Positions 4,180 through 59,704 of a stretch of 64,000 nucleotides of DNA are shown here, one piece after another; position 1 is the first letter of the stretch; each line of letters starts with the position of its first letter. The notes under the pieces are model-generated. The model was not told where the DNA came from, did no database searches, and saw nothing but the letters and a program-made list of their open reading frames with translations. Where the stretch lies: NCBI GenBank assembly GCA_031261425.1, contig JAISJR010000006.1:9701-73700 (forward strand), in the 5' to 3' direction. This DNA comes from Planctomycetota bacterium (GTDB lineage: Bacteria; Planctomycetota; SZUA-567). The position numbers were made by a program, and so were the translations under genes.

Positions 4180-4198
4180 AAACGCTCCTGAACAGTTC

Positions 4199-4316
4199 AA
4201 TTAACAATTAAAAATTAACAATTAACAATTGAGGAGTCATTGTTAAGACGGCGCGAAACGATTTTGAAAATAAGAACGCCACAATTTTTAATTGTCAATT
4301 GTCAATTGTTATATTG
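4199..4316. repeat. R2-type AT-rich palindromic element ('caattaacaattaaaaatt' arms)
   Basis: Inverted AT-rich arms 'caattaacaattaaaaattaacaattaacaattg' ... 'caatttttaattgtcaattgtcaattgtt' around a GC-containing core. Confidence 0.7.
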
Positions 4317-4372
4317 TGTATCTTGACGCTCGCCGCCGCTTACCTAAATTACACGCTTCGCTCATTTCGCGT

Positions 4373-6748: not shown

Positions 6749-6798
6749 ATTACGAATTAAAAATTACGAATTACGCGTAAGCAAATTTTAATTCTTAA

Positions 6799-7011
6799 CT
6801 CACGTTACGCGCCAAAAAATAGAAGCCACGAATGAACACGAAAAGAACTTAACACGAATTTTCACGAATTAGACGAATTAACACGAATTTTTTGTCCGTT
6901 CTCCGGCTCTTTATTTCGTGTAATTCGTGTAATTCGTGTAATTCGTGGACAAAAAATCTCTCTTTTTTATGCGTAAAAATTCGCGTCTTTTGGTTCACCG
7001 CATAACATCAG
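6799..7011. mobile_element. R4 MITE copy 1 (213 bp) with 7-bp TSD TTCTTAA
   Basis: Ends 'ctcacgttacgcgc...gcataacatcag'; identical 7-mer 'ttcttaa' at 6792-6798 and 7012-7018; inserted in AT-rich R2-type arms. Confidence 0.8.
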
Positions 7012-7090
7012 TTCTTAATTTTTAATTTTTAATTTGGCGCGGCGATAGATTCCATTGCCCGCCCCTCATTTACAAAAACGGAACTCACCT

Positions 7091-8692
7091 ATGCCTCTCG
7101 CAATAAAATTAACCGCCCTGTTGTGCGGCGCGGCGGTGATGGCGCTGGAAATGGTCGGCGTGCGGTTGCTCGAACCGTATCTCGGTAGCACCATTTACGT
7201 CTGGGGCGCGATTATCGGGATTTTTCTCGGCGCGTTGTCGCTCGGCTATTACCTCGGCGGCAATCTCGCCGACCGCTCGCCGAAATTTTCGACTTTATCC
7301 CTTTTGATTTTCGGCGCGGCGCTGTGGATTTTCGCCATTCCGCCGGCGTCCGGTTTCGTCGGCGAATGGGCGCTCGCGGCGTTCGCCGACCCGCGCTGGC
7401 AAGCGTTTTTCGCCGCGCTGATTTTGTATGCCGCGCCGAGCGTGTTATTGGGCGCGGTCAGCCCGTTTCTCGTGCGGCTCGCCGCGCGCGAGGTCGCGAA
7501 AATGGGACAAACCGCCGGCGGCATTTACGCGATTAGCACGTTCGGCTCGATTATCGGCACGTTTTTGGTGTCGTTCGTGTTGACCGAATACGTCGGCAGT
7601 ATGCGGATTACGTGGGGCATCGGCGCGGTTTTGTTGCTCGTCGCGGCGGGCGGTTGCGGCGCGCGTTATTGGGTGAAAGGCGTCGCCGTCGTCGCGTTGT
7701 TGACGGCGGGCGGATTTATCGCCGAGCAAGCGACGGCGGCGCAAGCCGTCGCCACCGGTTTCGGGCGCTCGCCGCAAGCCGCCGCGTGGCGCGAACGGGA
7801 GCAGGGCAAAAATTTGGCGACGCGCGAGTCGGCGTATCACCTCATCAACGTTTTCGACGGCAAATTCGATTTCAGCGACCGCGCGTTCACCGCCGGCGGC
7901 GCGCGTTATATGGTGTTCAACAACCAACTCGAAAGCGGCTGTTTGTTGGACGGCGGCGCGCCGACGGCGGCGACGGCTTGCGGCTATGTGAAATTGCTGT
8001 TTTTGGGCGCGCTTATCACCGGCGCCGCGCCGGAAAAAGTCGCGATTATCGGTTGCGGCGGCGGCGTGGGCGCGTTGATGTTTCGCGACGATTATCCCGA
8101 AGCGTCGCGCATCGACGTGGCGGATATTGACCCGGTGGTGTTTGAGTTGGCGGGAAAATTTTTCGGTTATCCCTATCCCGACCGCGCCGACGGCGTGATT
8201 CGCAGTTACGTGTCGGACGGGCGAAATTTTCTGCGCGGGGCGCCGGATAAAAATTGGGACTACCTCGTGTTGGACGCCTACACGGCGGGCGGGCGAATTC
8301 CGAAACATTTAATTTCGCGGGAATTTTTCGCGTTGGCGGAGCGCAAATTGACGGACGACGGCGTGGTGGTGGCGAACATCATCGGCGATTTCGGCGACGC
8401 GGGGCGTTTGCTTCGCGCCGTCGTCAAAACGGCGGGCGCGGTTTTCCGGCACGTGTATATTTTTCCGCGCCAATTAACCGGCGCGAGCAATATGTTGCTG
8501 GTCGGCTCCAATCACGCCGGCGACCGTCTGTCGCCGCGCGAATTACAAAGGCGTTTCGCGCAATTTAGCGGAACGCTCATCAAACAGTCGGTCGGCTACG
8601 CCGTCCGCAATTCTCCGGCGCAACCGTTAGACCTCGCCGCCGCGCCCCTCCTCACGGACGACTTCTGCCCGACCGACGGTATGTCCAACTAA
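7091..8692 (+). CDS. Fused polytopic membrane domain + spermidine synthase-like (aminopropyltransferase fold) protein
   Basis: N-terminal ~200 aa of hydrophobic helices; C-terminal 'VAIIGCGGGVGA...LVLDAYTAGG...VVVANIIGDF' class I MTase/spermidine synthase-type motifs. Confidence 0.75.
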   Translation: MPLAIKLTALLCGAAVMALEMVGVRLLEPYLGSTIYVWGAIIGIFLGALSLGYYLGGNLADRSPKFSTLSLLIFGAALWIFAIPPASGFVGEWALAAFADPRWQAFFAALILYAAPSVLLGAVSPFLVRLAAREVAKMGQTAGGIYAISTFGSIIGTFLVSFVLTEYVGSMRITWGIGAVLLLVAAGGCGARYWVKGVAVVALLTAGGFIAEQATAAQAVATGFGRSPQAAAWREREQGKNLATRESAYHLINVFDGKFDFSDRAFTAGGARYMVFNNQLESGCLLDGGAPTAATACGYVKLLFLGALITGAAPEKVAIIGCGGGVGALMFRDDYPEASRIDVADIDPVVFELAGKFFGYPYPDRADGVIRSYVSDGRNFLRGAPDKNWDYLVLDAYTAGGRIPKHLISREFFALAERKLTDDGVVVANIIGDFGDAGRLLRAVVKTAGAVFRHVYIFPRQLTGASNMLLVGSNHAGDRLSPRELQRRFAQFSGTLIKQSVGYAVRNSPAQPLDLAAAPLLTDDFCPTDGMSN

Positions 8693-12850: not shown

Positions 12851-12900
12851 CGCTCTCCAATGAGTGGGCAGTAGAACAATTACCAATTAAAAATTACAAA

Positions 12901-13140
12901 CTCACGTTACGCGCAAAAAAAAGAGAAGCCACGAATGAACAAGAAAAGAACTTAACACGAATTTTCACGAATTAGACGAATTAACACGAAACCGAGCGAA
13001 GCGAAGGTTAGTGTGCTTTCCAAATTTTTTGTCCGTTTTCCGGCTCTTTAATTTCGTGTAATTCGTGTAATTCGTGGACAAAAAATCTCTTTTTTTTTAT
13101 TCGTAAAAATTCGCGTCTTTTCGTTGACCGCGTAACATCA
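12901..13140. mobile_element. R4 MITE copy 2 (240 bp) with 7-bp TSD TTACAAA
   Basis: 'ctcacgttacgcgc...gcgtaacatcag' flanked by identical 'ttacaaa' at 12894-12900 and 13141-13147; inserted into an R2 element. Confidence 0.8.
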
Positions 13141-13242
13141 GTTACAAATTAAAGATTGCGGAGTTTGATTTTTTAAATTCGCTTCGCGCACTTTCAACTG
13201 TCAACTGTCAACTGCCCACTGCCCACTGTCCACGGCGCCCCG

Positions 13243-20629: not shown

Positions 20630-20832
20630 GCTCTATTCAATTGCCACGCCTTTTAAGGCGTGGTAGGCGGTCAAAAAAAAGAAAGGGCTTTAGCCCAAAA
20701 TAAAAAATGCGGTCTCATTCCACCGGCTTTAACCGAACAATTGTTCGGGGCTAAAGCCCATTTATTTTTTCTGACCGCCCACGAAAAAACCGCCCCGTTA
20801 AAGGGCGGTTTTATCAATTCGTTGCAACTCGC
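20630..20832. repeat. R3 element, degenerate copy (left 21-bp TIR intact, right end decayed)
   Basis: Begins 'gctctattcaattgccacgcc'; internal 'gggctttagccc...ggggctaaagccc' hairpins match complete copies at 34186 and 44479. Confidence 0.65.
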
Positions 20833-20866: not shown

Positions 20867-21718
20867 TTACCGCTGGATGCCGCCGCCATAATAGCCGTAT
20901 TTAACGCGGAAATTTTCTTGCGCCGCGCTTAATTTTTCCCAAAGATATTTGTCGCCGGACAACGCCGCGGTGATTTTCTCTCGCTCTTCCACGCTTAAAA
21001 AAGTCCGTCCGCCGCTCGGGTCAGCGCTTCTAATGCCGACTTGATAAACGGCGGCGCGATTGAAACTCTGGGCTTGCACCGAAGCGTATTTGGCAAGTTC
21101 GGGATTGACGCCCGCGTTTTTCAATTTTTTTCGCACGTAATCAAAAAGCGCGTCGCGCTCCGCCATACTCTCAAATTCCATATCCGTAAAAAAATTGTCT
21201 TGCACCGTTTCGACGAATTGCCCGTTGCGCTCCGCCACCGTGTGGCTCCAACCCTTGGCGTCGGGAAGCACTCGCGAAATTTCTTGCAATACCTCGCGGT
21301 GATACACCGAGTCGTAAACACCGTTAGGTATGCGCGGGTCGCCGCCGCCGGCGTTCCGCGCGGCAATTTCGGCAAAGTCATAGACCTGGTTTTCGTCGAG
21401 CGTTACCACGTATGCCGGTTCATTCCACAGCGACGGTTTTTCCGCGCTCGCTTCCGGTTTCAACATTCGCAAAATGCTGTGCGTTTTTATATCGCCGCGC
21501 AACGCCGCCGTGATTTCGTCTTTGTTCGCGACGTCGCCGAGAACTTTAACCTTGCCGTTTTCGTCGAGGTCAAGCGAAAACTCGCCTTCGGCTTTGACGC
21601 CGGCGCGTTCCAACACCGCCGCCGCGTGGTCAGCCAAGACGTCTTCGACGCCGCGCGGTTTGACGGTCGCTTGCTTGTAATAATTGACGTAATCGCTCGC
21701 GTTTATGGAGTTAGACAT
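20867..21718 (-). CDS. Hypothetical protein, paralog A of a tandem pair (repeated 'ITAALSGD' motif)
   Basis: 283-aa ORF clearly homologous to 22866..23789 ('LDLDENGKVKVLGD', 'KITAALSGDKYL'). Confidence 0.65.
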   Translation of the reverse strand: MSNSINASDYVNYYKQATVKPRGVEDVLADHAAAVLERAGVKAEGEFSLDLDENGKVKVLGDVANKDEITAALRGDIKTHSILRMLKPEASAEKPSLWNEPAYVVTLDENQVYDFAEIAARNAGGGDPRIPNGVYDSVYHREVLQEISRVLPDAKGWSHTVAERNGQFVETVQDNFFTDMEFESMAERDALFDYVRKKLKNAGVNPELAKYASVQAQSFNRAAVYQVGIRSADPSGGRTFLSVEEREKITAALSGDKYLWEKLSAAQENFRVKYGYYGGGIQR

Positions 21719-22865: not shown

Positions 22866-23789
22866 TTACGCCATCTGAATACCGCGCTTACTCACGCCGT
22901 TATGCATTCCGTAAATATCCCGCATTTGGGCGGCATACTTGTTTTGCGCGGACACCAAACTATCAAGAAGATATTTATCGCCGGACAGCGCCGCGGTGAT
23001 TTTTTGCTTTTCGTCGTCGCTCAACGGCGCGTAATGAGCCGCGTTCGCGACGATTTCATAGCGGTCGCTACGCCAATCATAATTGAGGTCTAACGTCGCG
23101 CGCTTGACGACTTCCGCGTCGATACCCGCGTTTTGCAGTTTTTTCAGCGTGTAATCGAAAAGTTTTTCGCGCTCGTCCATACTGTCAAAATCCATTCCCG
23201 CGAAAAAAATGTCTTCCCGCTTTTCCAACCACTGGTCGTTGGCGATGTCATTGACGTTGCGATGTAGCCAGCCGCGGTCTTCGACTTCCCATAAATGTTC
23301 CGGCTGACGTTTTTCCACCTCTTTGAATACTTCTCGCAGGTAATGTTGTTGATACAGTTTGTCCAAAAGCGCGTTGCCGCCGGCGTAAGGCGCCGGCGTA
23401 TCGGCAAGCCGGTGAACGCCCTCGCTGAGGTCAACGATGCTGGAACGCGAGTCCCACAGCGACGCATTTTCTGCGTCCGCCGAATTTTCAACCGCCGGCG
23501 CGGGCTTTAACCAACGCAAAATGCTGAGGGTTTTCATATCGCCGCTCAACGCCGCCGTGATTTCGTCTCGGTTCGCGGCGTCGCCGAGAACTTTGACCTT
23601 GCCGTTTTCGTCGAGGTCAAGCGACAAGTCGCCGGCGTTTTTTATGCCCGCGCGTTCAAGCACCGCATTGACGTGCGCGTTCAAACTTTCTTCGACATTG
23701 CGGTATTGGGACGCCGGTTTTTCGAGAACGGCAAGGACGTAATTGTTCAGATAACCGTTTGCCGCCGGCAACATTTGGTTGGGTATCAT
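22866..23789 (-). CDS. Hypothetical protein, paralog B of tandem pair
   Basis: 307-aa ORF homologous to 20867..21718. Confidence 0.65.
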   Translation of the reverse strand: MIPNQMLPAANGYLNNYVLAVLEKPASQYRNVEESLNAHVNAVLERAGIKNAGDLSLDLDENGKVKVLGDAANRDEITAALSGDMKTLSILRWLKPAPAVENSADAENASLWDSRSSIVDLSEGVHRLADTPAPYAGGNALLDKLYQQHYLREVFKEVEKRQPEHLWEVEDRGWLHRNVNDIANDQWLEKREDIFFAGMDFDSMDEREKLFDYTLKKLQNAGIDAEVVKRATLDLNYDWRSDRYEIVANAAHYAPLSDDEKQKITAALSGDKYLLDSLVSAQNKYAAQMRDIYGMHNGVSKRGIQMA

Positions 23790-23960: not shown

Positions 23961-25613
23961 CTAATCGCCAATCAGCCGCGCCATCGTCGTCAGCGCGGTC
24001 AAGCCGTAGGCGCGGGCGACTTCCGACAGGCGCGTCAGCGCGGCGGCGCGGGCGTTTTTGTCCGGCGCGTCGATGACGGTTTGCAAAATTTCCAGCGCGT
24101 AGCCGTAAGCCCACGCCGCCCGCAAGTCGTTCGCGGCGGGATTAACCGCGCTCGCCGCCGGACGAAAATAAAATTCGCGCGGCGCGGCGTTCAAACCCGC
24201 CACACGAATAACGGCGCGCTCGCTCAACGCCCCGCGCCCGCGCAATATAAGCGGTTGTCCCCGATACAAATTCGGCAACACCCGCGGAAAAACCGCATCG
24301 GTGCCGGTGCAATTCGCCGCGCAAGCGAACAACACCGGCGCTTCGTAGGCGCGAAAAAAATCCCGCATTTCCGCCGCCGCCGTCGCCGTCGAAGTTTGCC
24401 GCCGGAAAAAACCGCGCGACCGATACGCCAACAATTCCAACAAATCCGCCCTGCCCTTGTCGCCGACCATAAACGTAAAAATCGAAAAATGGTCGCGTTG
24501 CGCGCGGCTAAAATCCTTGACCAACTGCCGGACTTCCTTCACCCCGTAATTGGCGAAGCCGTCCGTGATTAAAAATATGTTGCACGGGCGTCCGTCGTCG
24601 CTCTGCCGCGCCAAAATCATCTGCGTAACGCGGAACAAATCCGTCATATACTCGCCGCTCGGACGCGAGAAAAATCTTGACAAACTCGCCGGTATTTCTC
24701 CGGCGGGCAAAAAGTCGGGACTGAACCGATGCACGCGCTCGCTGAATTTGACGACGTTCCAGCGGTCGCCCGCCGGCAAAGTTTGCAGATAATCGCCAAT
24801 CGCCTCGCGCATCGCGCGAATGGCGTCCGACGAAATGCTTTGACTCACGTCCAACAAAAACAACACGTCTTTGGCTAACGCCGGCAACGCGCTGTCCGCG
24901 CGCACCGTCAGCGACAATTGAAAATACGGCGACGGGTCGGCGGCGGTCGGCGGCGCGTAAAAAAGTTGCGCCGTCAAATCGTTTTCGAGCGACCGGCGCT
25001 CAGACACGGGCGGCGGCAACACCGGCATCGGCGCGGCGGGCTGAAAATCGGGCTGAACATCAAACTGAAAATTTTCCGGCGACGGCGGCGACGGCGGCGG
25101 CAACGCGAAAACCGGCGCCGACCAATGCAACGGCGGCGGCGGATTGTCGTTCCGCCCGGACAAGACCAACTGTTTTTCCACCGGCGCGAGGTATGAATCG
25201 GTCGCCGGACGGCGCAGTTCCGGCGACGCGACGACCGGCGCGGGCAACCAATTTTTTCCCGCCGCCGCCGGCGGCAGATTTAACGCCGGTAACGGCGGCA
25301 CGGCTAACGCCGCGGGCATGGCGACCGGCGGCAATTCCGGCAAATGCGCGGCGGGAAGCGACGGTAAGTTTTCCGCCGCGCGATAATTGCCCTGATAAAA
25401 ATTTTCCGGCAACGCGGGCGCGGTCAACGCGGGCGCGGGCGAAGCGGGCGGGGGCGGAAGCGGCGTTAAATCGACGGCGAAAAGACGCTCGACCTGAACG
25501 CGAAAATTATCCACGTCCCACATCACCCAATAACCGGCGAGCAACAATAAAACGGTCATCGCCGCGAGCGCGGCGCCGAACGCGACGGCGGCATCGGAAC
25601 GAGGGGCAGGCAT
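23961..25613 (-). CDS. von Willebrand factor type A domain membrane protein with Pro-rich linker
   Basis: N-terminal TM; MIDAS 'DVSQSIS' (DxSxS) and VWA fold. Confidence 0.75.
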   Translation of the reverse strand: MPAPRSDAAVAFGAALAAMTVLLLLAGYWVMWDVDNFRVQVERLFAVDLTPLPPPPASPAPALTAPALPENFYQGNYRAAENLPSLPAAHLPELPPVAMPAALAVPPLPALNLPPAAAGKNWLPAPVVASPELRRPATDSYLAPVEKQLVLSGRNDNPPPPLHWSAPVFALPPPSPPSPENFQFDVQPDFQPAAPMPVLPPPVSERRSLENDLTAQLFYAPPTAADPSPYFQLSLTVRADSALPALAKDVLFLLDVSQSISSDAIRAMREAIGDYLQTLPAGDRWNVVKFSERVHRFSPDFLPAGEIPASLSRFFSRPSGEYMTDLFRVTQMILARQSDDGRPCNIFLITDGFANYGVKEVRQLVKDFSRAQRDHFSIFTFMVGDKGRADLLELLAYRSRGFFRRQTSTATAAAEMRDFFRAYEAPVLFACAANCTGTDAVFPRVLPNLYRGQPLILRGRGALSERAVIRVAGLNAAPREFYFRPAASAVNPAANDLRAAWAYGYALEILQTVIDAPDKNARAAALTRLSEVARAYGLTALTTMARLIGD

Positions 25614-25795: not shown

Positions 25796-26014
25796 ATGGC
25801 TACCACCAAAAAAACGCCGGCGGCAAAAGCCCCCGCGAAAAAAACAGCGGCGACGAAAGCGCCCGCGAAAAAAGTAGCGGCGGCAAAAGCCCCCGCGAAA
25901 AAAGCGACCGCCAAAGCGCCGGTCAAGAAAGTCGAAAAGAAAGTGGAAAAAGTCGCCGCGTCCAAAGCGCCGGCGAAAAAATGCACGACCTCCTGCGGTT
26001 GCAAAAAGAAATAA
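25796..26014 (+). CDS. Histone H1-like Lys/Ala-rich nucleoid protein (KAPAKK repeats)
   Basis: RBS 'aaagaggg' before ATG; 'TKKTPAAKAPAKKTAATKAPAKKVAAAKAPAKKATAKAPVKK'; followed by a terminator at 26037. Confidence 0.6.
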   Translation: MATTKKTPAAKAPAKKTAATKAPAKKVAAAKAPAKKATAKAPVKKVEKKVEKVAASKAPAKKCTTSCGCKKK

Positions 26015-26072: not shown

Positions 26073-26094
26073 GTTGGAGTTGACCCTCTAAATA

Positions 26095-26212
26095 CGAATT
26101 AAAAATTACAAATTAAAAATTAAAAATGATGGAGTTTGATTTTCAAATTGCGCGAAACGAATTTGAGAATCAAACTCCGCAATTTTTAATTGTGAATTTT
26201 TAATTGTGAATT
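26095..26212. repeat. R2 element (complete)
   Basis: 'aattaaaaattacaaattaaaaattaaaaat' - 'ggagtttgattttcaaattgcgcgaaacgaatttgagaatcaaactcc' - 'gcaatttttaattgtgaatttttaattgtgaatt'. Confidence 0.8.
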
Positions 26213-26215
26213 GCC

Positions 26216-27307: not shown

Positions 27308-27387
27308 AGGTAGAGTTTTTTTTTAGAGTTTAGAGTTGAGATCTGAGAGTTGAGAGTTAAGAGTGATGACGTTTGGCGTTCGACTAA

Positions 27388-27510
27388 TGAATTAAAAATT
27401 ACAAATTAAAAATTAAAAATTTCGGATTGATTATCAAAATTGCGCAAAGCGAATTTGAAAATCAAACTCCGTCATTTTTAATTTTTAATTTTTAATTTGT
27501 AATTGGAAAC
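27388..27510. repeat. R2 element (complete), preceded by an R1 heptamer arm 27309-27367
   Basis: Same arms and hairpin core as 26095. Confidence 0.8.
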
Positions 27511-27513
27511 GCT

Positions 27514-33747: not shown

Positions 33748-33775
33748 TTTTTACTCGTTTCGTTGTCGGCAAGCA

Positions 33776-33898
33776 ATTGAAAATTAACAATTAACAATTG
33801 TGGAGTTTGATTTTTAATTCGCTTCGCGAAATTTTGACCGCGAACGCCTCAATTGTGAATTGTTAATTGTCAATTGTTAATTGTTAATTGTTAATTCT
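33776..33898. repeat. R2 element
   Basis: 'caattgaaaattaacaattaacaattg' - 'tggagtttgatttttaattcgcttcgcgaaattttgaccgcgaacgcctc' - 'aattgtgaattgttaattgtcaattgttaattg...'. Confidence 0.8.
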
Positions 33899-34185
33899 CT
33901 CTCAATCGCCGTGCCATTTTCGCCGTTTGGCGCATCTCATCGGTTAAAGTTGAAAAATCCGCCGCGTGGTCTATCGGCAAAAACCGGCAAAAAGAATAGA
34001 AAAATTTCCGAACAAAGTTTGCGCGGCGGGAATAAATATCTGCAAGTTTTTTTTGCGGCGGCGATGATTTTATTTACCGGCAGGCAAAAATTGCCTGTTG
34101 CGCGTTTTTTCATTTGGCTTGTTTCTTATCTCGCGGAGGCACGGAGAACACGGATAAATTCAATTATTGGTGGATGCTCTATTCA

Positions 34186-34358
34186 ATTGCCACGCGCTTT
34201 AGCGCGTGGTTAGCGCTCCCGCTAAAATGGGCTTTAGCCCAAACCATAATTTGGCTAAAGCCGATGGAATTTAGACCACGTTTTTTATTTTTGGGCTAAA
34301 GCCCATTTCTTTTTTGACCGTCAACCACGCCTTAAAAGGCGTGGCAATTGAATAGAGC
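34186..34358. repeat. R3 element, complete copy with perfect 21-bp TIRs
   Basis: 'gctctattcaattgccacgcg...ggcgtggcaattgaatagagc' with internal 'gggctttagccc'/'gggctaaagccc' hairpins. Confidence 0.85.
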
Positions 34359-34691
34359 AACCGCGTTTTGCCACCGCCGTTTTGGAAGCGGAGAAAAACT
34401 TCGGCGCCGGGCTTTTTACCCCGCGCCGGAATAATTTTAACTCGTAATTTTCAGTGTTTTAAGCGTCTATTTTTCACCTCGCCAATCGTCCGCGCCGCCA
34501 ACTCACGCCGAAAACTTTGAGAAAAATTAAATTTCTTGCTTGCGAAAACAGTTGAATGACCTAAATTAGCAATGTCGGCGGTGGAAGCGACGAAAAAGGT
34601 GAAAATGTGATAAAAATGCGTCCCGCGCGGTAAAAACGGTTGACGCGCCAAACTTTGGTCGGATTTCTTTGTTTTTTTTATTTTTTTTTAC

Positions 34692-34704
34692 GGGGGGGGG
34701 GGGG
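34692..34704 (+). promoter_or_regulatory. Homopolymeric G13 tract, preceded by T8-A-T9, 5 nt upstream of the GT4 start codon
   Basis: 'gttttttttatttttttttacgggggggggggggagttATG'. Confidence 0.7.
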
Positions 34705-34708
34705 AGTT

Positions 34709-35893
34709 ATGAGAATCGCGATGTTTTCGTGGGAGTCACTGCACTCAATTTTTATTGGCGGTTTGGGCGTGCACGTTACGGAACTTGCCGCCGGCTTGGA
34801 ACGCCGCGGGCATGAAGTGCATTTGATTACCCGCCGCAAAGCCAACCAAAATCCGTATGACTTGGTTGACGGCGTCCATTATCATCGTATCGACCACGAG
34901 GTTACCGGCGACGATTTTGTGGTGTCGATGGACAAAATGTGCCAATCGATGGCGGCGAAATTTCGCGATATTACCACGTTGGTCGGGCATTTCGATTTGC
35001 TCCACGCGCACGACTGGCTGACCGGCAACGCGATGAAATACTCGATGCAAACGTTCGGCACCAAAGGCATCCTGTCGATGCACTCCACCGAATACGGGCG
35101 CGACGGCAACGTGTTTTATGACGGGTTTGCCCGCGAAGTCCGCGACTGCGAAGCCGAAGCGTGCTTCCACGCCGACCAAATCATCTGCGTCAGTTCGTTC
35201 CTCGCCGAAGAAGTCGAACGCATTTACGCCGTGCCGCACAACAAAATTCACGTGGTGCCGAACGGCGTCAACTATCACGCTTTCGACGGTTTCATCGACC
35301 CCGCCGCCGTCAAAACCGAATACGGCATCGCCCCGATGGCGCCGACGGTTTTCGCCGCCGGTCGGATGAGTTTGCAAAAAGGTATGGATATGTTGGTCGA
35401 AGCCGTGCCGATGGTCTTGGCGAGTTATCCCGAAACGAAATTCGTCATTTCCGGTAGCGGTCCCGAAAAAGACAACGTCGTGCGCATTGCCAATCAAATC
35501 GGCGTCAGCGATTCCGTCATTTTCCTCGACGCGCTTCCGCGTCACAAATACATCGACTTGGTGCGCGCGGTGGACCTCGTCGCGGTGCCGAGCCGCAACG
35601 AACCGTTCGGTATCGTCATTCTGGAAGCGTGGGCGGCGGGCAAACCGGTGGTTACGACGACCGTCGGCGGTCCGCGCGAATTTGTGTGGCACAATGTCAA
35701 CGGTTTCCACGTGGACGCGAATCCGGGCGGCTTGGCGCACGGCATCGGCTCGCTCTTGGCGGACCACGACCACTGCCGCGCTCTCGGTCTGAACGGGCGC
35801 AAAGCGTGCGAAGATATGTTCAACTGGGACAACGTCGCGCAATACACCGAAGGCGTCTATCAATACGTGTTGGACAACAGTTTCGCCTACTAA
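34709..35893 (+). CDS. Glycosyltransferase family 4 (glycogen-synthase-like fold)
   Basis: 'MRIAMFSWESLHSIFIGGLGVHVTELAAGLERRGHEVHLIT' GT4 N-domain; C-terminal 'EPFGIVILEAWAAGKPVV'. Confidence 0.8.
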   Translation: MRIAMFSWESLHSIFIGGLGVHVTELAAGLERRGHEVHLITRRKANQNPYDLVDGVHYHRIDHEVTGDDFVVSMDKMCQSMAAKFRDITTLVGHFDLLHAHDWLTGNAMKYSMQTFGTKGILSMHSTEYGRDGNVFYDGFAREVRDCEAEACFHADQIICVSSFLAEEVERIYAVPHNKIHVVPNGVNYHAFDGFIDPAAVKTEYGIAPMAPTVFAAGRMSLQKGMDMLVEAVPMVLASYPETKFVISGSGPEKDNVVRIANQIGVSDSVIFLDALPRHKYIDLVRAVDLVAVPSRNEPFGIVILEAWAAGKPVVTTTVGGPREFVWHNVNGFHVDANPGGLAHGIGSLLADHDHCRALGLNGRKACEDMFNWDNVAQYTEGVYQYVLDNSFAY

Positions 35894-42930: not shown

Positions 42931-43020
42931 GGAGATAGAGTTTAGAGTTTAGAGTTGAGAGTTGAGAGTGCGCGAAGCGAATTATAAAAATAAAACTCCG
43001 ACAGCCGCCCTGTAAGGGCG

Positions 43021-43250
43021 AAATATATTAGCCCAGGGTAAGCGGCGACGTTCTATCAGCCGCGCCACCCTGGGTAAAAGGTCGCGAAGCGACCATCCGA
43101 CAGTCCCGCCGTTAGGCGGCATTTCGACGCGGAGCGTCGATTTAGCGCGGCAAAGAACGCCGCGGGACTGTCGGATTGATTATTAAAATAACCGCTACCC
43201 AGGGTGGCGGCGCAAAGCGCGCGCGCCTTACCCTGGGCTAATATATTTCG
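43021..43250. repeat. Unique ~230-bp nested palindrome (multi-level inverted repeats)
   Basis: 'aaatatattagcccagggtaagcg...cgccttaccctgggctaatatattt', 'gccaccctgggtaa/ctacccagggtggcg', 'ccgacagtcccgc/gcgggactgtcgg', inner hairpins 'ggtcgcgaagcgacc', 'cgacgcggagcgtcg'. Confidence 0.8.
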
Positions 43251-43330
43251 CGCTTTCAGCGCGACGGTCGGAACGATTTATCAAGAATTTCCCGCCGCCG
43301 CGCGGCGGCGGGCTGATGGAGGCAAAAAAA

Positions 43331-44329
43331 ATGAGCAAAAAATTTTCCCTGATGAGCGTCGGGTCGCCGATTACGGATTACTTGGCGCGGGTGAGCGACG
43401 ATTTTCTGCGGCAGAACGTCGGCGGCGAGAAAAACGGCATGCGCCTCATCGACAGCGCGCAGATGGCGGAGTTGCTCGGCAAACTGCCGGACGCCTACGT
43501 CTCCGCCATCGGCGGCTCGGCGATGAACACCGCGCGGGCGCTGGCGCGATTGGGCGTCGCCACTTGCGGTCTGGGCAAAGTCGGCAACGACGAAACGGGT
43601 CGGCATTACGTCAAGAAAATGGCGAACGCCGGCGTCAGCCCCGCGAAATTCAAATACGCGGGTTTTTGTCCAAGCGCGCGCTGTTTGAGTTTAATCACGC
43701 CCGACGCCGCGCGCACCTTGCGCACCGACCTCGGCGCGGCAAGCAAACTGTTGCCGGCCGACCTCGCCGCCGCGGATTTCGCCGACGCCGACCACGTTTA
43801 TATCGAAGGTTATTTGTTATGGAATCAGCCGCTCGCCGAGCGGCTTTTCACGCTGGCGCGCGACGCCGGTTGCGAGATTTGCCTGAATTTCGGCTCGTTT
43901 GAAATGGTGCGCCAGTTGCGTCCGCAATTGCAAACGTGGTTGCGCGATTACGTTGACGTCGTGTTCGGCAACCTCGAAGAAGCGCGCGAGTATTTTGGCG
44001 ACCGAGGCGGAAACGCCCAAGAAATGGCGCAGAGTTTAATGACCGTTTGCGGTTGCGCGGCGGTAACCGACGGCGCGAACGGCGCGGTTGTCGCCGAAGC
44101 CGGCGAAGCGACCACGCATTGTCCGGCGCAAACGCCGACGGAGTTGGTCGACACCACCGGCGCGGGCGATTTCTGGGCGGCGGGATTTTTATACGGACGC
44201 ATCAAAAATTACGACCACGCCCGCTGCGGACAAATCGCCGCGGCGCTCGCCCGCGAAATCATCGCCGTCGCCGGCGTGGAATTGCCGGCGGAGAAATGGG
44301 AGGCGTTGCGGAGTGAAATTAAAAATTAA
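43331..44329 (+). CDS. PfkB-family carbohydrate/nucleoside kinase
   Basis: 'DTTGAGDFWAAGFLYG' PfkB signature. Confidence 0.8.
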   Translation: MSKKFSLMSVGSPITDYLARVSDDFLRQNVGGEKNGMRLIDSAQMAELLGKLPDAYVSAIGGSAMNTARALARLGVATCGLGKVGNDETGRHYVKKMANAGVSPAKFKYAGFCPSARCLSLITPDAARTLRTDLGAASKLLPADLAAADFADADHVYIEGYLLWNQPLAERLFTLARDAGCEICLNFGSFEMVRQLRPQLQTWLRDYVDVVFGNLEEAREYFGDRGGNAQEMAQSLMTVCGCAAVTDGANGAVVAEAGEATTHCPAQTPTELVDTTGAGDFWAAGFLYGRIKNYDHARCGQIAAALAREIIAVAGVELPAEKWEALRSEIKN

Positions 44330-44478
44330 AAACTCGTGTTACGCGCAAAAATAAAATCCCCCGATTTATCAGGCAAAGAAGCGTCGTCCGCAGATAACGC
44401 GGATAACTACAAAAAAAACGTTTTTATCCGCGCTAATCCGCGTTATCCGCGGACAAAGTTCTTCGGGGCAACCGCAAC

Positions 44479-44617
44479 GCTCTATTCAATTGCCACGCCC
44501 TTTAGGGCGTGGTCGGCGCTGGAAAATGACCGGCTTTAGCCGAATGGTTTATTTGGGCTAAAGCCCTTTTCTTTTTTGACCGTCCACGCCCTAAAGGGCG
44601 TGGCAATTGAATAGAGC
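44479..44617. repeat. R3 element, complete copy
   Basis: Perfect TIRs 'gctctattcaattgccacgcc'/'ggcgtggcaattgaatagagc'. Confidence 0.85.
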
Positions 44618-44650
44618 GACCGCGTAAATTTGGGTTGACCGCGTAACTCG

Positions 44651-44760
44651 AGTTAAAAATTACAAATTGTGGAATGGACTTAAAAATTGCGCGAAGCGAA
44701 TTTGAAAATCAAACTCCAACATTTTTAATTTTTAATTTTGAATTTTTAATTCGTAATTAT
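44651..44760. repeat. R2 element
   Basis: 'aaaaattacaaattg...gcgcgaagcgaatttgaaaatcaaactccaacatttttaatttttaattttgaatttttaatt'. Confidence 0.8.
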
Positions 44761-52726: not shown

Positions 52727-53767
52727 ATGTCCCTCGCCGCCGCGCTCACCGCGCCTGCCGACCGGAAAATGCTCGGCATTTTGCAAAAAATCACGCCGCT
52801 CGGCTGGGCGGCGAAAGAAATCACCCGCCGCCGTTATGAAAAATTTGCGCGTTTGGCGCTCATCGGCGCCGGCGGCGCGGTTACCCGCGCCACCCTGCCG
52901 CGCTTGTGGCAATTGGCGAACGGCGTCGCGGAAAAACTCGAAGTCGTTTGTCCCGAAATCTATATCGCCGACGCGCCGACCGTCGCCGCCAAAATCATCG
53001 GCGAAGAACAGCCGCTTTTAATGTTGCAGCGCGGGGCGCTCGCGCTGGACGAAAAAATGATGACCGTGTTATTGGCGCACGCGCTGACCGCGCTCGTCTG
53101 CGGGCATCCGCCGTATTTGGCGACGCGCGATTTGACGGCGGCGGCGGCGGATAATTTGGGCTTGTTCAAAGGCGCGACGGCATTGCCGCGGATGTTGTTG
53201 GAAGAATGGTTTTACGCCGCCGAAATGTCCGGCGACCGCGGCGCGTTATGGGTAACCGGCGACGTGGATTTAGTGCTGGAATTTTTGGGACCGCCGTCGG
53301 CGTGGGGCAAAATTCCGGCGAGCGAGTTAATCGCGCAGGGCGAGCGTTATTTGACCGCGTATCGCGAAACGCCGGCGTGTCCGCTGTTTCGCACGTGGTC
53401 GAATTTGTATTTCAATTTGCCGCGCTACGGTTTGCGGGCGGCGGAAATTAAAAAATGGGCGGACAGCGCCGAATACGCCCAATTGCGCGGCGACGAAAAA
53501 ACGGCGGCGGAGCCGGTTTATTGGGGCGCGTTTGCCGGCGATTTATCGGAAATGGAACTCGCGGCGGGCGGAGAAAATGATTTATGGTCGGAGACGCCGG
53601 ACGACCTGCGCTCGGCTGGCGACTCGCGCTCGGCTACCGACTTGCGGTCGGCTACCGACTATTTTGACGCACTCAAAAATGAAGCGCAACACCTCGCCGC
53701 CGCCGCCGCCGACTTCGCCAAAACCGGCGCCGGGGCGGTGAGTATGTGGCTGAGGAAAGCCAATTAA
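52727..53767 (+). CDS. Hypothetical protein
   Basis: 346-aa ORF with coding-like composition; no recognisable motif. Confidence 0.5.
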   Translation: MSLAAALTAPADRKMLGILQKITPLGWAAKEITRRRYEKFARLALIGAGGAVTRATLPRLWQLANGVAEKLEVVCPEIYIADAPTVAAKIIGEEQPLLMLQRGALALDEKMMTVLLAHALTALVCGHPPYLATRDLTAAAADNLGLFKGATALPRMLLEEWFYAAEMSGDRGALWVTGDVDLVLEFLGPPSAWGKIPASELIAQGERYLTAYRETPACPLFRTWSNLYFNLPRYGLRAAEIKKWADSAEYAQLRGDEKTAAEPVYWGAFAGDLSEMELAAGGENDLWSETPDDLRSAGDSRSATDLRSATDYFDALKNEAQHLAAAAADFAKTGAGAVSMWLRKAN

Positions 53768-53886
53768 CAATTGACAATTAACAATTAACAATTAAGAAAT
53801 TTGATTATCAGATTTACCGTGCGCCATTTTGACAATCTACTCCTCAATTGTTAATTGTTAATTGTCAATTGTTAATTGTAATTGCC
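53763..53886. repeat. R2-type AT-rich palindrome
   Basis: 'caattaacaattgacaattaacaattaacaattaag...ctcaattgttaattgttaattgtcaattgttaattgtaattg'. Confidence 0.8.
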
Positions 53887-53887
53887 G

Positions 53888-54778
53888 TTACGCCCGCGGG
53901 TGGAAATCGTGGTAAGTGTCGAATTTGCGGCGGTCGTGGACGTGAGTGTAAATTTCCGTCGTCGCCAAATCGACGTGTCCCAACATTTCCTGCACCGCGC
54001 GCAAATTCGCGCCGCCGGCGAGCAGGTGCGTCGCGAAACTGTGGCGCAATAAATGCGGATAGACCTTCTTCGCAATGCCGGCGCGTTTGGCGCCGGCGCG
54101 CACGATTTCATAGAGATTTTCCCGGCACATTTTTTTGCCGCGGCACGACAAAAAGGCGAACGGTTGTTGATGAAACCGGTCTAATTTCGGGCGGACGTTT
54201 TGCAAATAATTTTCTAACGCCGCCGCCGCCGGCTCGCCGAACGGCGCGACGCGGTCTTTCGTTCCCTTGCCGCGCAAGCGCAACGTCCGCGCCGGCAAGT
54301 CAATCATCCGCAAGCGCAAATCGCAAATTTCCGAGACGCGCGCCCCGCTGGCGTAAAACATTTCCAACATCGCGCGATTGCGAATCGCCAAATCACCCGT
54401 TGCTTCTCCGGCAACGCGCAACATTTTTTCGATTTCGGCGGGCGACAATTCGTCCGGCAAATAGCGGTCAAGTTTCGGCTGGTCGAGATGGTCGCAGGGA
54501 TTGTCGGGGCGGATTTTTTCGGTCAGACAAAACTTGAAAAATTGCCGCACGGTAACCAGATGCCGCGCGCGGCTGGCGGGCGCCAAACCGCGGTCGGCGA
54601 GATAGCCCGCGAAAGCGACGACATCCTCGGCAGTAATCGCGGCGATTTCGGCGCGCGCGCACTCCGCCATATAAGCGGAAAAATCCGCCAAATCGCGCTC
54701 ATACGCCTGCAACGTATTCTTCGCCAAGCCGCATTCAACCTGTAGATGCAATAGAAAATCCTTGCCGTGCGGGAGCAT
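53888..54778 (-). CDS. xerD: Tyrosine site-specific recombinase XerD/XerC
   Basis: N-terminal 'FLLHLQVECGLAKNTLQAYERDL'; catalytic 'HLLRHSFATHLL...GH...TEIYTHV' with RHRY residues. Confidence 0.85.
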   Translation of the reverse strand: MLPHGKDFLLHLQVECGLAKNTLQAYERDLADFSAYMAECARAEIAAITAEDVVAFAGYLADRGLAPASRARHLVTVRQFFKFCLTEKIRPDNPCDHLDQPKLDRYLPDELSPAEIEKMLRVAGEATGDLAIRNRAMLEMFYASGARVSEICDLRLRMIDLPARTLRLRGKGTKDRVAPFGEPAAAALENYLQNVRPKLDRFHQQPFAFLSCRGKKMCRENLYEIVRAGAKRAGIAKKVYPHLLRHSFATHLLAGGANLRAVQEMLGHVDLATTEIYTHVHDRRKFDTYHDFHPRA

Positions 54779-54824
54779 TGGAGGAGCCGTTTTTAAGGGA
54801 ATTAAAAATTACGAAAATGAGGAA

Positions 54825-55066
54825 CTCACGTTACGCGCAAAAAAAAAAGAGAAGCCACGAATGAACACGAAAAGAACTTAACACGAATTAACACGAATTA
54901 GACGAATTAACCCGAAACCGAGCGAAACGAAGGTTAGTGGGCTTTCCAAATTTTTTGTCCGTTTTCCGGCTCTTTAATTTCGTGTAATTCGTGTAATTCG
55001 TGGACAAAAAATCTCTTTTTTTTATTCGTAAAAATTCGCGTCTTTTCGTTGACCGCGTAACATCAG
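54825..55066. mobile_element. R4 MITE copy 3 (242 bp) with 7-bp TSD TGAGGAA
   Basis: 'ctcacgttacgcgc...gcgtaacatcag' flanked by 'tgaggaa' at 54818-54824 and 55067-55073. Confidence 0.8.
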
Positions 55067-55081
55067 TGAGGAATAAGGACT

Positions 55082-56965
55082 TTACGCCCCCGCCACCAAT
55101 TTCGCGGCGCGTTGCAGAAACGCCGCCGGGTCTTTGATTTTGCCGCCGGACGCAATCACCGCGCCGTCGAAGAGCAAGCGCAAATCCTCCGTCGCCGCGT
55201 TTTTGTCCGCCGTTAATTTCGACCGCAACGCCGCGATTGCCGCGTGGTCGGGGTTGATTTCCAGCACCAATTTCCGCTCCGGCGCCGCCTGCCCCAACTC
55301 GCGCAACAGCCGCTCCATCTGCGCCCCGATTTGCCCCTCTTCGCCGATTAAACAAAGCGGACTCGATTTCAGCCGCGCCGACAGGCGCGTTTCGGCGATT
55401 TCGTCGCCTAACGTTTCTTTGATGAACGCCAATAAATCCTTGTTGTCTTTTTCGCGCTGTTCTTTTTCCGCCGCCGGCGTTTCGTCTTTCGCCGCGAGTT
55501 CGCCGCGGTCAATCGCTTTCAACTTTTTGCCTTGGTATTCCGGCGCCGCCGCGACGACCGTTTCATCGACCGGGTCGGTCATAATCAGCACTTCGTAACC
55601 GCGCTCGCGGAAATACTCCATATACGGCGAATTTTCGACCATCGCGCGATTTTCGGCAATCATATAGTAGATTTCTTCCTGCCCCGCCGGCATCGCTGCG
55701 ACATATTGCGCCAGCGTTACGTTTTCCCCGCCCGCGCGCGTGGACGGATACAGCAATAAATCAAGAAGCGACTCGCGATTTTCAAAGTCGCCCATCAAGC
55801 CGGATTTCAACATCACGCCGAATTGCGCCCAAAATTTAAGATACGTTTCGTTTTCTTTTTCCAACATTTCCTTGAACGTGGCGAAGAGGCGCGAAACGAG
55901 CGCCTTGCGAATTTTGTGCAGTTGCCGGTCTTCCTGCAACATTTCGCGCGAGACGTTGAGCGGCAAATCGGAACTGTCCACCACGCCGCGCACGAACGCA
56001 AAATACGGCGGCAACAGTTTGTCGCACTCTTCGGTGATGAACACGCGGTTGACGTAGAGTTGCAAGCCGTGGCGCTGTTCGCGCATAAAAAAGTCGGACG
56101 GGCGGCGCGCCGGAATAAACATCAGCGCCTTAAATTCCTGCGCGCCCTCGGCGGCGAAAGGAATCGTTTTCAACGGCGCGTCGAAATCGTGCGAAATGTG
56201 CTTGTAAAATTCGGCGTATTCCTCGTCTTTGACCTCGCTTTTGGCGCGAAGCCAAATCGCCTGCCGCGAGTTGACGATGTCTTCCTTGTGTTCGATTTCG
56301 TCGGTTTCCTTGCCGTCTTTATCGCGCTTTTTTTCGTCGGTAACGAGGACGACGGGATACTCGATAAAGTCGGAAAATTTTTGCACCAGCGAGCGTAAGC
56401 GCCACGTTTCGGCGAACTCGCTTTCGTCGTCGCGCAAGTGCAAAATGATGGTCGTGCCGCGTTTGTCGCGTTCCGCCGCCTCAATGGTGAAACTGTCTTC
56501 GCCGGAAGAAGTCCATTTCGTCGCCGCGGTTTGGCGCGGCGCGCGCGTGATAACTTCGACCTTATCGGCGACCATAAACGCCGAATAAAAACCGACGCCG
56601 AACTGCCCGATTAAGTCAACGTTTTCGGACTTCGCCTGTTTCATTTTTTCGAGGAATGCTTTGGTGCCGGAGCGGGCGATGGTGCCGAGGTCGTTGATGA
56701 GCGTTTCGCGACTCATGCCGCAACCGTTGTCGCTAATGGTGAGCGTTTTCGCCGCCGCGTCGGGAATGATTTTAATTTGAAAATCGGCGTCGCCCTCGGC
56801 GAGTTCGGCGTCGGTGAGCGCGTCGAAGCGGATTTTGCCGATGGCGTCGGCGGCGTTGGAGATGAGTTCGCGCAAGAAAATTTCTTTGTGCGAATAGAGC
56901 GAGTGGACGATGATTTCCATCACTTGTTTGAGTTCGGCTTTGAATTCCATTTTTTCGGCGGACAT
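55082..56965 (-). CDS. htpG: Molecular chaperone HtpG (Hsp90)
   Basis: 'IIVHSLYSHKEIFLRELISNAADA' GHKL ATPase N-domain and full-length Hsp90 similarity. Confidence 0.95.
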   Translation of the reverse strand: MSAEKMEFKAELKQVMEIIVHSLYSHKEIFLRELISNAADAIGKIRFDALTDAELAEGDADFQIKIIPDAAAKTLTISDNGCGMSRETLINDLGTIARSGTKAFLEKMKQAKSENVDLIGQFGVGFYSAFMVADKVEVITRAPRQTAATKWTSSGEDSFTIEAAERDKRGTTIILHLRDDESEFAETWRLRSLVQKFSDFIEYPVVLVTDEKKRDKDGKETDEIEHKEDIVNSRQAIWLRAKSEVKDEEYAEFYKHISHDFDAPLKTIPFAAEGAQEFKALMFIPARRPSDFFMREQRHGLQLYVNRVFITEECDKLLPPYFAFVRGVVDSSDLPLNVSREMLQEDRQLHKIRKALVSRLFATFKEMLEKENETYLKFWAQFGVMLKSGLMGDFENRESLLDLLLYPSTRAGGENVTLAQYVAAMPAGQEEIYYMIAENRAMVENSPYMEYFRERGYEVLIMTDPVDETVVAAAPEYQGKKLKAIDRGELAAKDETPAAEKEQREKDNKDLLAFIKETLGDEIAETRLSARLKSSPLCLIGEEGQIGAQMERLLRELGQAAPERKLVLEINPDHAAIAALRSKLTADKNAATEDLRLLFDGAVIASGGKIKDPAAFLQRAAKLVAGA

Positions 56966-57998: not shown

Positions 57999-58610
57999 AT
58001 GCAAAAATTCGACATCAAAAAAATCCTGCTGACGGTGCTTGCGGGCATCTCTTTGCCGCAGGTGCGGCGGCTGATTTTTTTGATCTTCGGCATCGCGATT
58101 GCGGCGATTATCACGACGATGGCGGTGGTGCTGATTGCGGAGTGGGAGGACGAAGACACGACGGCGCTCGGCAAAGAACGGTTGCAGACGCTTTACGCGG
58201 CGGTGAAGAAATTTCAGTCCGAAGAATACTTCGCGCGTCCGCCGAAAAATTTAACCGAATTGTTGGATTTGCCGCCACGCGCGGCGCGCGAGCCGGAAGT
58301 CGTCCCGCTACTCGCGGACGCCGCCGCCTTGCGCCTGCCGCGCGCGGCTTCCGCCGCCGACGAGTCCGATTTTTGGCTCGTGCCGTATTACGATTTTTCG
58401 CTCCCCGCCAACGCGATTATTTTGTTAGACCGTCCGGGAAATTACGCGCGCGGCGGACACCTCGTGTTCAACGACGGCACGCTGATTTTTTTGAGCGCGT
58501 CCGCCGCCGATTACCGGCGTTTCGCGCAGGCGGTAATGGAGCGCCGCGACCGCGATTTTGTGCGGGCGCAATCCGCCGGTTGCTCTATCGTCGGTTTCAA
58601 GAGCAATTAA
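57999..58610 (+). CDS. Hypothetical membrane-anchored protein
   Basis: N-terminal TM helix, coding-like composition. Confidence 0.5.
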   Translation: MQKFDIKKILLTVLAGISLPQVRRLIFLIFGIAIAAIITTMAVVLIAEWEDEDTTALGKERLQTLYAAVKKFQSEEYFARPPKNLTELLDLPPRAAREPEVVPLLADAAALRLPRAASAADESDFWLVPYYDFSLPANAIILLDRPGNYARGGHLVFNDGTLIFLSASAADYRRFAQAVMERRDRDFVRAQSAGCSIVGFKSN

Positions 58611-58736
58611 CAATTTACAATTTACAATTAACAATGGTGGAGTTTTTATTGGCAAATCCGCAAGCGCTCGCGAAGCGAATCTTTGACCATAAAACTCCGC
58701 AATTGTTAATTGTTAATTGTGAATTGTGAATTGTTC
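58604..58736. repeat. R2 element
   Basis: 'caattaacaatttacaatttacaattaacaatggtggagtttttattggcaaatccgcaagcgctcgcgaagcgaatctttgaccataaaactccgcaattgttaattgttaattgtgaattgtgaattg'. Confidence 0.8.
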
Positions 58737-59704
58737 TTTCGGACGCCATACGCCATATAGCCCGCCAGCAACAAAAACACGCCGCCCGCAAACGCCAAGC
58801 GTCCGCCGGTTGAAAGTTCGCTCTGGCGCAAAAAACTTTCGATGAGCGCCGCGAGCAAAACCAAAATCGCCACGCCCAACGCGCCGCTCAACACTTCGCG
58901 CCCGCACGCCCGCAAACTCGCCAAGCGCGAGCGATAACCGGGCGCGATAATCGCCCGCGCCAACGCCAACCCGAAACCGCCGCACAACACCACCGCGCCG
59001 AGTTCGGGAATGGCGTGCGGCAGAAACCACGCCCACGTTTCGGCGTAAATGCCGTGACTGTGATACAGGTGCAAAAACGCGCCGATGAGCATCCCGTTGT
59101 AAAAAATCAACAACACCGTCGGCGCGCCCAACAACAGCCCCGACACCAACGTGAACAGCGCCACCCGCAAATTGTTGACGAACAGCAACGCCGAAAAAAA
59201 CGCTTTTTCTTGATTGCCGTCGTCGCGACCGGCGCGCAAGACCGCCTCCAACGTTTCGCGTTCCGCGCCGGGCGCGCGCGGGTCTTCGATGCCGTAAGCG
59301 TCGCCGGTCAGAAACGTGTAGGCGACGAGCGGGTCGCGCTCAATCAGCGCGTAACTCGCGCCGATGCCGCCGAGCATAATCAGTAGCGCCAACAAATGCG
59401 CGCGCCAATGCGCCGCAAGAATTCGCGGCAGGGTCGCGCCGAAAAAACTGCCGGCGCCCCGCCCCGAACGGGCGGGCGGCGTGTAAATGACGCTGTGCGC
59501 CGCCGCGACGAGTTGATTGAGATATTGTTGGAGCGCGGCGTCGGTCGTGCGGGCTTCGATTTGCGCCAAGTCGGCGGCGGCGCGGCGATAAAGATAATCA
59601 AACCGCCATAATTCGGCGGCGGACAAGCCGCGCCACGCGCGCGCCCGCGCCGTCAACGTCGCGAGTTCAGCCCAGTCCTGTCGGCGGCGCGTGCGATTGG
59701 TCAT
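58706..59704 (-). CDS. Polytopic membrane protein, SpoIIM/DUF95-like (weak)
   Basis: Cytoplasmic N-domain then ~5 TM helices. Confidence 0.45.
   Translation of the reverse strand: MTNRTRRRQDWAELATLTARARAWRGLSAAELWRFDYLYRRAAADLAQIEARTTDAALQQYLNQLVAAAHSVIYTPPARSGRGAGSFFGATLPRILAAHWRAHLLALLIMLGGIGASYALIERDPLVAYTFLTGDAYGIEDPRAPGAERETLEAVLRAGRDDGNQEKAFFSALLFVNNLRVALFTLVSGLLLGAPTVLLIFYNGMLIGAFLHLYHSHGIYAETWAWFLPHAIPELGAVVLCGGFGLALARAIIAPGYRSRLASLRACGREVLSGALGVAILVLLAALIESFLRQSELSTGGRLAFAGGVFLLLAGYMAYGVRKNNSQFTINN

Follow-up and report, generated by a model that had tools for sequence, protein, structure and literature searches.

How did a family of short non-coding elements come to lie, each between two identical 7-mers, at three places in one stretch of planctomycetal DNA? 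The initial annotation of this stretch (64,000 nucleotides, hereafter the window) had described three related non-coding elements, R4, with imperfect TIRs and internal repeats, and reading of the sequence and alignment both bore out that description. R4c1 extends from 6799 to 7011 (213 bp, 38% GC), R4c2 from 12901 to 13141 (241 bp), and R4c3 from 54825 to 55066 (242 bp), all three in one orientation (plus strand); the end of R4c2 had been set one base short, at 13140. The 13-bp termini are imperfect inverted repeats, CTCACGTTACGCG on the left and CTGATGTTACGCG on the right (right end given as the reverse complement), which match at 10/13 positions. A terminus search placed the left terminus of R4c1, CTCACGTTACGCG, at 6799 to 6811 on the plus strand and its diverged right terminus, CTGATGTTATGCG, at 6999 to 7011 on the minus strand, and this pair has one mismatch more than those of the other copies. 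In the interior, CACGAAT-type repeats run direct through the left half (in R4c1, 6826 to 6889, plus strand) and inverted, as ATTCGTG, through the right half (6913 to 6948, plus strand, with a period of 9). R4c2 and R4c3 are 96% identical in the alignment; R4c1 is without the 34-bp central block of these two copies and carries one extra 9-bp AATTCGTGT unit. The GC content of R4 is 38%, compared to 57% in the window as a whole.

The count of three copies in 64 kb stands for R4 itself, but a fourth element with the same terminus had been missed. This element, X4 (320 bp, 44333 to 44652, plus strand), was found by a mismatch-tolerant terminus search; its termini, CTCGTGTTACGCG and CTCGAGTTACGCG, match at 12/13 positions, and its interior is unrelated to that of R4. 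Indeed, the CTSNNGTTACGCG terminus occurs 7 times in the window, with 0.06 to 0.08 occurrences expected, an enrichment of about 100-fold. In all, the analysis covered ~190 kb of sequence from this clade. It included loci of close relatives with an HtpG that is 96% identical (MAGs GCA_025997475.1, GCA_026001765.1, and GCA_026001705.1 and several Logan contigs) and L029, a fully syntenic 21.6-kb locus located by its homologue (94% identical) of the gene at 7091 to 8692. Neither R4 nor X4 occurred in 59 kb from loci of the relatives, and two siblings were present: Y (373 to 388 bp; L023 4138 to 4525, L025 5415 to 5787, and L026 5369 to 5741), which is flanked on both sides by TTTTTAA and has termini complementary at 12/13 positions, and Z (284 bp; L029 9644 to 9927). 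One terminus, 13 bp of the form CTC-NN-GTTACGCG, is carried by four unrelated interiors, those of R4, X4, Y, and Z, with sizes of 213, 241, 242, and 320 bp for R4 and X4 in the window and 284 to 388 bp for the siblings in relatives. R4 and X4 further have 19-bp asymmetric ends in common (left …GCGCAAAAA, right …GCGGTCAAC), and since asymmetric ends of ~19 bp are kept across two interiors, the two look like derivatives of one parent, moved by one transposase.

Two of the siblings are shells with secondary insertions, since nested repeats (a 150-bp palindrome in X4 and a 280-bp repeat in Y) lie inside them. Sequence comparison identified the repeat in X4 (44476 to 44625) as P1, a GC-rich palindrome of ~150 bp with arms CTCTATTCAATTGCCACGCCCTTTAGGGCGTGG…, which also occurs alone, without CTC…GTTACGCG termini, at 20630 to 20783 and 34176 to 34366 in the window, at L025 410 to 561, and at L029 2426 to 2478, 3711 to 3768, and 5541 to 5741. 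Another family of palindromic repeats, P2 (~280 bp), makes up the interior of Y (L023 4227 to 4504); P2 stands alone upstream of pfkB in the window (42997 to 43284) and is also present at L029 7172 to 7471. The GC content of X4, Y, and Z (50 to 63%) is explained by nested GC-rich palindromes.

All four window elements (the three R4 copies and X4) are intergenic. R4c1 has an OEP/TolC-like gene on one side and a spermidine-synthase-like gene on the other; R4c2 precedes the start codon of a probable MBL-fold gene by 47 bp and is contained in the arm of a heptamer-array/core unit; and R4c3 lies between the start of a xerC/D-like recombinase gene and the stop codon of htpG, where it adjoins a two-unit heptamer array with neither a core nor a second arm. 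The genes next to different R4 copies are unrelated to each other. The stop codon of pfkB (TAA, 44327 to 44329) lies inside the left duplicate of X4, and its protein is therefore unchanged. None of these elements disrupts a gene, and no regulatory role is indicated.

The heptamer-array/core units are a feature of this DNA in their own right. Nearly every intergenic region of the window holds a long imperfect palindrome (41 segments, e.g., 4195 to 4317, 26088 to 26213, 27385 to 27511, 33772 to 33903, 53758 to 53884, and 58598 to 58740), built from inverted arms of 7-bp tandem repeats around a palindromic core of ~60 nt, GGAGTTTGATTTTCAAATT-GCGCGAAGCG-AATTTGAAAATCAAACTCC. The arms are of the types AACAATT…/…AATTGTT, GAGTTGA/CTCTCAA, and CAGTTGA/CTGTCAA. 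Such units are present in relatives at 94 to 96% identity and absent from those at 65 to 73%, and they look more unusual than R4 itself.

When the flanks of each window element were matched, n = 7 alone gave exact identity, and this was so for all four. The duplicated heptamers are TTCTTAA for R4c1 (6792 to 6798 and 7012 to 7018), TTACAAA for R4c2 (12894 to 12900 and 13142 to 13148), TGAGGAA for R4c3 (54818 to 54824 and 55067 to 55073), and TTAAAAA for X4 (44326 to 44332 and 44653 to 44659); exact 7-bp duplications that differ between the R4 copies, as initially reported, were thus confirmed. Taking the siblings into account, five of the six independent insertions have an exact 7-bp repeat, with five different 7-mers, four of which lie in period-7 arrays. 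The reconstructed targets are aa TTCTTAA tt, aa TTACAAA tt, aa TGAGGAA ta, aa TTAAAAA tt, and aa TTTTTAA tt, and their consensus is an 11-bp palindrome, AA/TTNNNAA/TT (AATTNNNAATT; slashes mark the borders of the duplicated heptamer), which sharpens the AT-rich target preference proposed earlier. A symmetric preference of this kind would be expected from a dimeric transposase. Two consecutive AATTNNN heptamers make up exactly this target, and the elements sit in array arms because such heptamers supply it. The view that all three R4 copies sit in the arms of array/core units (termed R2 by the initial annotation) is right for R4c1 and R4c2, but R4c3 is merely beside a two-unit array. The elements are also not tied to a larger unit, since an R2 core is lacking at R4c3 and most arrays are free of R4.

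The description of the duplications as clean applies to R4c3 but not to R4c1 and R4c2, where a confound had been overlooked. Four insertions (R4c1, R4c2, X4, and Y) are embedded, in a single phase, in period-7 arrays of AATTNNN. At 14% of positions in such arrays, and at 22% if the TTNNNAA phase is counted, a heptamer is followed by an identical one. The array itself thus partly mimics a duplication, and a single in-array 7-bp duplication is weak evidence. If gene conversion or recombination among array/core units had spread the elements, the flanking 7-mers would simply be neighboring units, and the single phase as well as the frequency of identical neighbors would fit. Moreover, the number of array units varies between genomes independently of insertions, as in the left arm at the Y site. 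However, TGAGGAA, which flanks R4c3, is not an array unit and is the sole duplication outside the array phase, and adjacent identical 7-mers make up only 0.56% window-wide. Also, four exact in-array matches would be expected jointly at ~0.2^4 by chance. Past the 7-mers, the flanks of the R4 copies are unrelated in the alignment, and the copies thus have no larger recombined unit in common.

The second clean case is the Y site, for which a filled and an empty allele could be compared. The empty target of Y lies at 58621 to 58627 in the window (TTGTAAA on the minus strand) and is filled in L023, L025, and L026. The window allele reads …AATTGTT AATTGTA AATTGTA AATTGTT AATTGCT…, and the relatives read …AATTGTT AATTTTT AA[Y]TTTTTAA TTGTG AATTGTT AATTGCT…; the heptamer counts of the two alleles are equal only once Y and one TTTTTAA are removed. 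In view of R4c3 and the Y site, a pure array artefact is rejected, and we consider it very unlikely that recombination between arrays produced these flanks. Together with the joint improbability of the four in-array matches, the same two cases lead us to regard the 7-bp duplication as real on the sequence evidence, albeit less clean than first described.

At the sites of R4 itself, the comparison of filled and empty alleles that the initial annotation had proposed was possible only in part. The only empty site for R4 is site 2 (R4c2): in L029, ~31 bp separate the MBL and kinase genes, and both R4 and the whole array/core unit (window ~12887 to 13235) are absent. This is not a precise empty or excised allele, since the host array unit is missing as well, but it supports a lineage-specific gain of R4. 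At site 1, Z abuts the left target TTCTTAA in L029, as R4c1 does in the window, in the opposite orientation; the flanking 7-mers of Z agree at 4/7 positions, the right flank being the one that departs. This would fit either a hotspot that was used twice, which it suggests, or an older, decayed insertion. At site 3 (R4c3), the window and the relatives cease to be homologous at the stop codon of htpG, and the empty-site test is therefore uninformative. In the relatives, this stop codon is followed by a convergent gene for an RND membrane-fusion protein, and in the window (53888 to 55084) by R4c3 and then the xerC/D-like gene, a rearrangement breakpoint beside a mobile element. An apparent solo end at L025 7266 turned out to belong to a 52-bp segment that is conserved in the relatives, lacking in the window, and mutated in its core in L023, and we do not count it as clean evidence. 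The element content differs among genomes that are 94 to 96% identical at the protein level, which points to recent transposition and makes the elements strain-level markers; both the terminus and the heptamer arrays are absent from relatives whose proteins are 65 to 73% identical. The superfamily is real and recently active. Insertion mediated by a transposase, as had been proposed, was upheld by the TIRs, the variable 7-bp duplications, the shared termini with unrelated interiors, the polymorphism of Y, and the absence of R4 at site 2.

Alternatively, R4 could be immobile and conserved for a function, e.g., as a terminator, a regulatory site, or the gene of a structured RNA. It is intergenic, has the same orientation in three copies, and contains internal motifs that could bind a protein; its single-strand folding is modestly more stable than that of shuffled sequences (z = -3.0). 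For X4 the corresponding value is z = -13, because of the nested 150-bp palindrome. However, an Rfam scan of the window gave no family match in R4, a promoter/terminator consensus scan of R4c3 found nothing, and the neighboring genes are unrelated. R4 is absent at the orthologous site in the 94% relative and from the 59 kb of relatives' loci, and an exact 19-mer search did not find R4 or X4 in any species-representative genome. A function would, moreover, leave the TIRs and the variable duplications without explanation, and we regard it as extremely unlikely to account for R4. A product encoded by the elements was not apparent either: the longest stop-free stretches confined to them (60-bp flanks included) are ~40 to 69 aa, and a joint query with the six-frame translations of R4 and X4 gave no protein-database match at E <= 0.001.

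That a tyrosine recombinase, e.g., the xerC/D-like enzyme next to R4c3, inserted the elements with the 7-bp repeat as crossover region is scarcely credible, although a Phage_integrase-family gene (53888 to 54778) lies only 46 bp from R4c3, tyrosine recombinases cut 6 to 8 bp apart, which fits a 7-bp repeat, and synteny with the relatives breaks at R4c3: site-specific recombination needs an identical overlap in element and target, so that the copies should share one flanking 7-mer, but the duplicated 7-mers differ between copies (five different ones in all), no recombinase is near the other three window elements, and the 296-aa protein has an ordinary XerC/D architecture.

Transposition therefore remains the preferred reading, and R4 is very probably a family within a small superfamily of type II MITEs, i.e., non-autonomous cut-and-paste elements, in an uncultured Planctomycetota lineage. 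We assign them to type II because the families have only their ends in common. Prokaryotic MITEs are typically <500 bp long, have TIRs of ~4 to 30 bp and target-duplication repeats, contain no transposase gene, and lie in AT-rich intergenic DNA, and reviewed examples of type II are Correia/NEMIS of Neisseria, RUP of pneumococcus, the QMITEs of Coxiella, and the Sulfolobus SM elements (PMC10969869). The R4 superfamily has the length, the TIRs, the duplications that differ between copies, the absence of coding capacity, and the AT-rich intergenic insertion sites of a MITE; mobility is evident from the filled and empty sites of the sibling Y and in part for R4 itself. Like type II MITEs in general, it is AT-rich and hairpin-prone, young copies have target duplications, and different families resemble each other only at their termini. 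The duplication is 7 bp long in the R4 superfamily, whereas that of Correia and RUP is TA. The superfamily also differs from the listed MITEs in that its palindromic target of 11 bp is found in heptamer arrays that occur genome-wide and in that its host belongs to an uncultured Planctomycetota lineage. REP/BIME elements (RAYT, IS200/IS605-like) are abundant short palindromic intergenic repeats, and the heptamer-array/core units as well as P1 and P2 are closer to this class than R4 is. REPs are not known to have target duplications or TIRs of the R4 kind, whereas R4, X4, and Y have both. A full-text search of the paper collection consulted found no description of a MITE for Planctomycetota, and the present elements thus add a superfamily with a defined terminus, duplication length, and palindromic target for this phylum. 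Beyond these points, R4 is an ordinary mobile element of a known kind.

CTC-NN-GTTACGCG ends together with a 7-bp duplication provide a search key for the partner transposase. A Pfam scan of the proteins of the 30 largest window ORFs found no transposase among them; a low-GC ORF at 34640 to 35893 was identified as a glycosyltransferase. The ~125 kb of relatives' loci likewise yielded no transposase bounded by these termini, and neither the window nor these loci contained inverted terminus pairs with IS-like spacing and a matching 7-bp duplication. An apparent inverted pair in L018 (Ga0137405_1298571) was rejected, since this contig is perfectly palindromic about its centre and thus an assembly artefact. 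With the left end CTCRYGTTACGCGCAAAAA as query, an exact search across 185,579 species-representative genomes gave four single chance matches in coding DNA of unrelated MAGs. The right end GTTGACCGCGTAACWYSAG had 16 chance matches in metagenomes, and scans of viral contigs with the element ends revealed nothing relevant.

None of the published end consensuses of the IS4 family that were consulted matched CTC-NN-GTTACGCG (PMC2266710). The ISPepr1 subgroup of this family has duplications of 7 to 8 bp, apparently favors AT-rich targets, and has 5'-CT ends with the consensus YT-AA-YTT---A (De Palmenaer et al. 2008, PMC2266710). R4 and X4 are similar in their 7-bp duplication, their AT-rich targets, and their 5'-CT ends. 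Compared to the consensus position by position, the R4/X4 ends have CT in 8/8 cases, A at position 4 in 6/8, and YT at positions 7 and 8, and they mismatch at positions 5, 9, and 13. An IS4-family, ISPepr1-like transposase is thus a possible, though doubtful, candidate for the partner; because the end consensus is matched only in part and the searches brought up no single-ORF DDE transposase with a YREK motif, as expected of such a parent, we treat ISPepr1 as a lead and not as an assignment. The conserved asymmetric ends of R4 and X4 (~19 bp) also recall the outside and inside ends of Tn5. Other IS groups with duplications of 6 to 8 bp in ISfinder, namely, ISDol1, IS21, IS982, and IS1016, are possible parents as well.

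On this basis, we infer the following route of insertion. Acting in trans from a gene outside the element, elsewhere in the genome, a DDE transposase would bind the ~19-bp ends as a dimer, excise the element, and attach it by its 3' ends to the two strands of the target at points staggered by 7 bp. Repair of the gaps would then produce the 7-bp duplication. The AATTNNN heptamer arrays would offer a target every 7 bp and act as landing pads. The length of the duplication equals the period of the arrays (7 bp each), and arrays and termini co-occur in one narrow clade. Could the arrays themselves have grown partly by footprints, with each insertion and excision at AA/TTNNNAA/TT adding a 7-bp unit and regenerating the target? 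We consider such growth most improbable; the simpler reading of the coincidence is that the arrays serve as landing pads.

The superfamily also accounts for breaks in short-read contigs of this organism at R4 sites. When window proteins were looked up by exact match to find strain variants, two were on record and two were not, and the former yielded only contigs of SRR14710919 that end inside R4, 14 to 27 nt into R4c2 and R4c3. This is expected, since a multi-copy repeat breaks short-read assembly.

A few further observations concern the sequence around the elements. Just left of R4c1, where an array meets its core, the palindrome AATTACGCGTAAGC (6767 to 6782) resembles two fused terminus cores (TTACGCG/CGCGTAA), but this could be chance, as AATTACG is also an array unit. 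Two paralogous genes at 20867 to 21718 and 22866 to 23789 have a 219-nt stretch that is 77% identical and no Pfam match, and both lie in a stretch of lower GC content (49 to 53%, 20 to 24 kb). Finally, tandem repeats of ~15 to 30 nt at 25803 to 25981, in the VWA-domain gene at 23961 to 25613 or its upstream region, encode a lysine/alanine-rich repeat.
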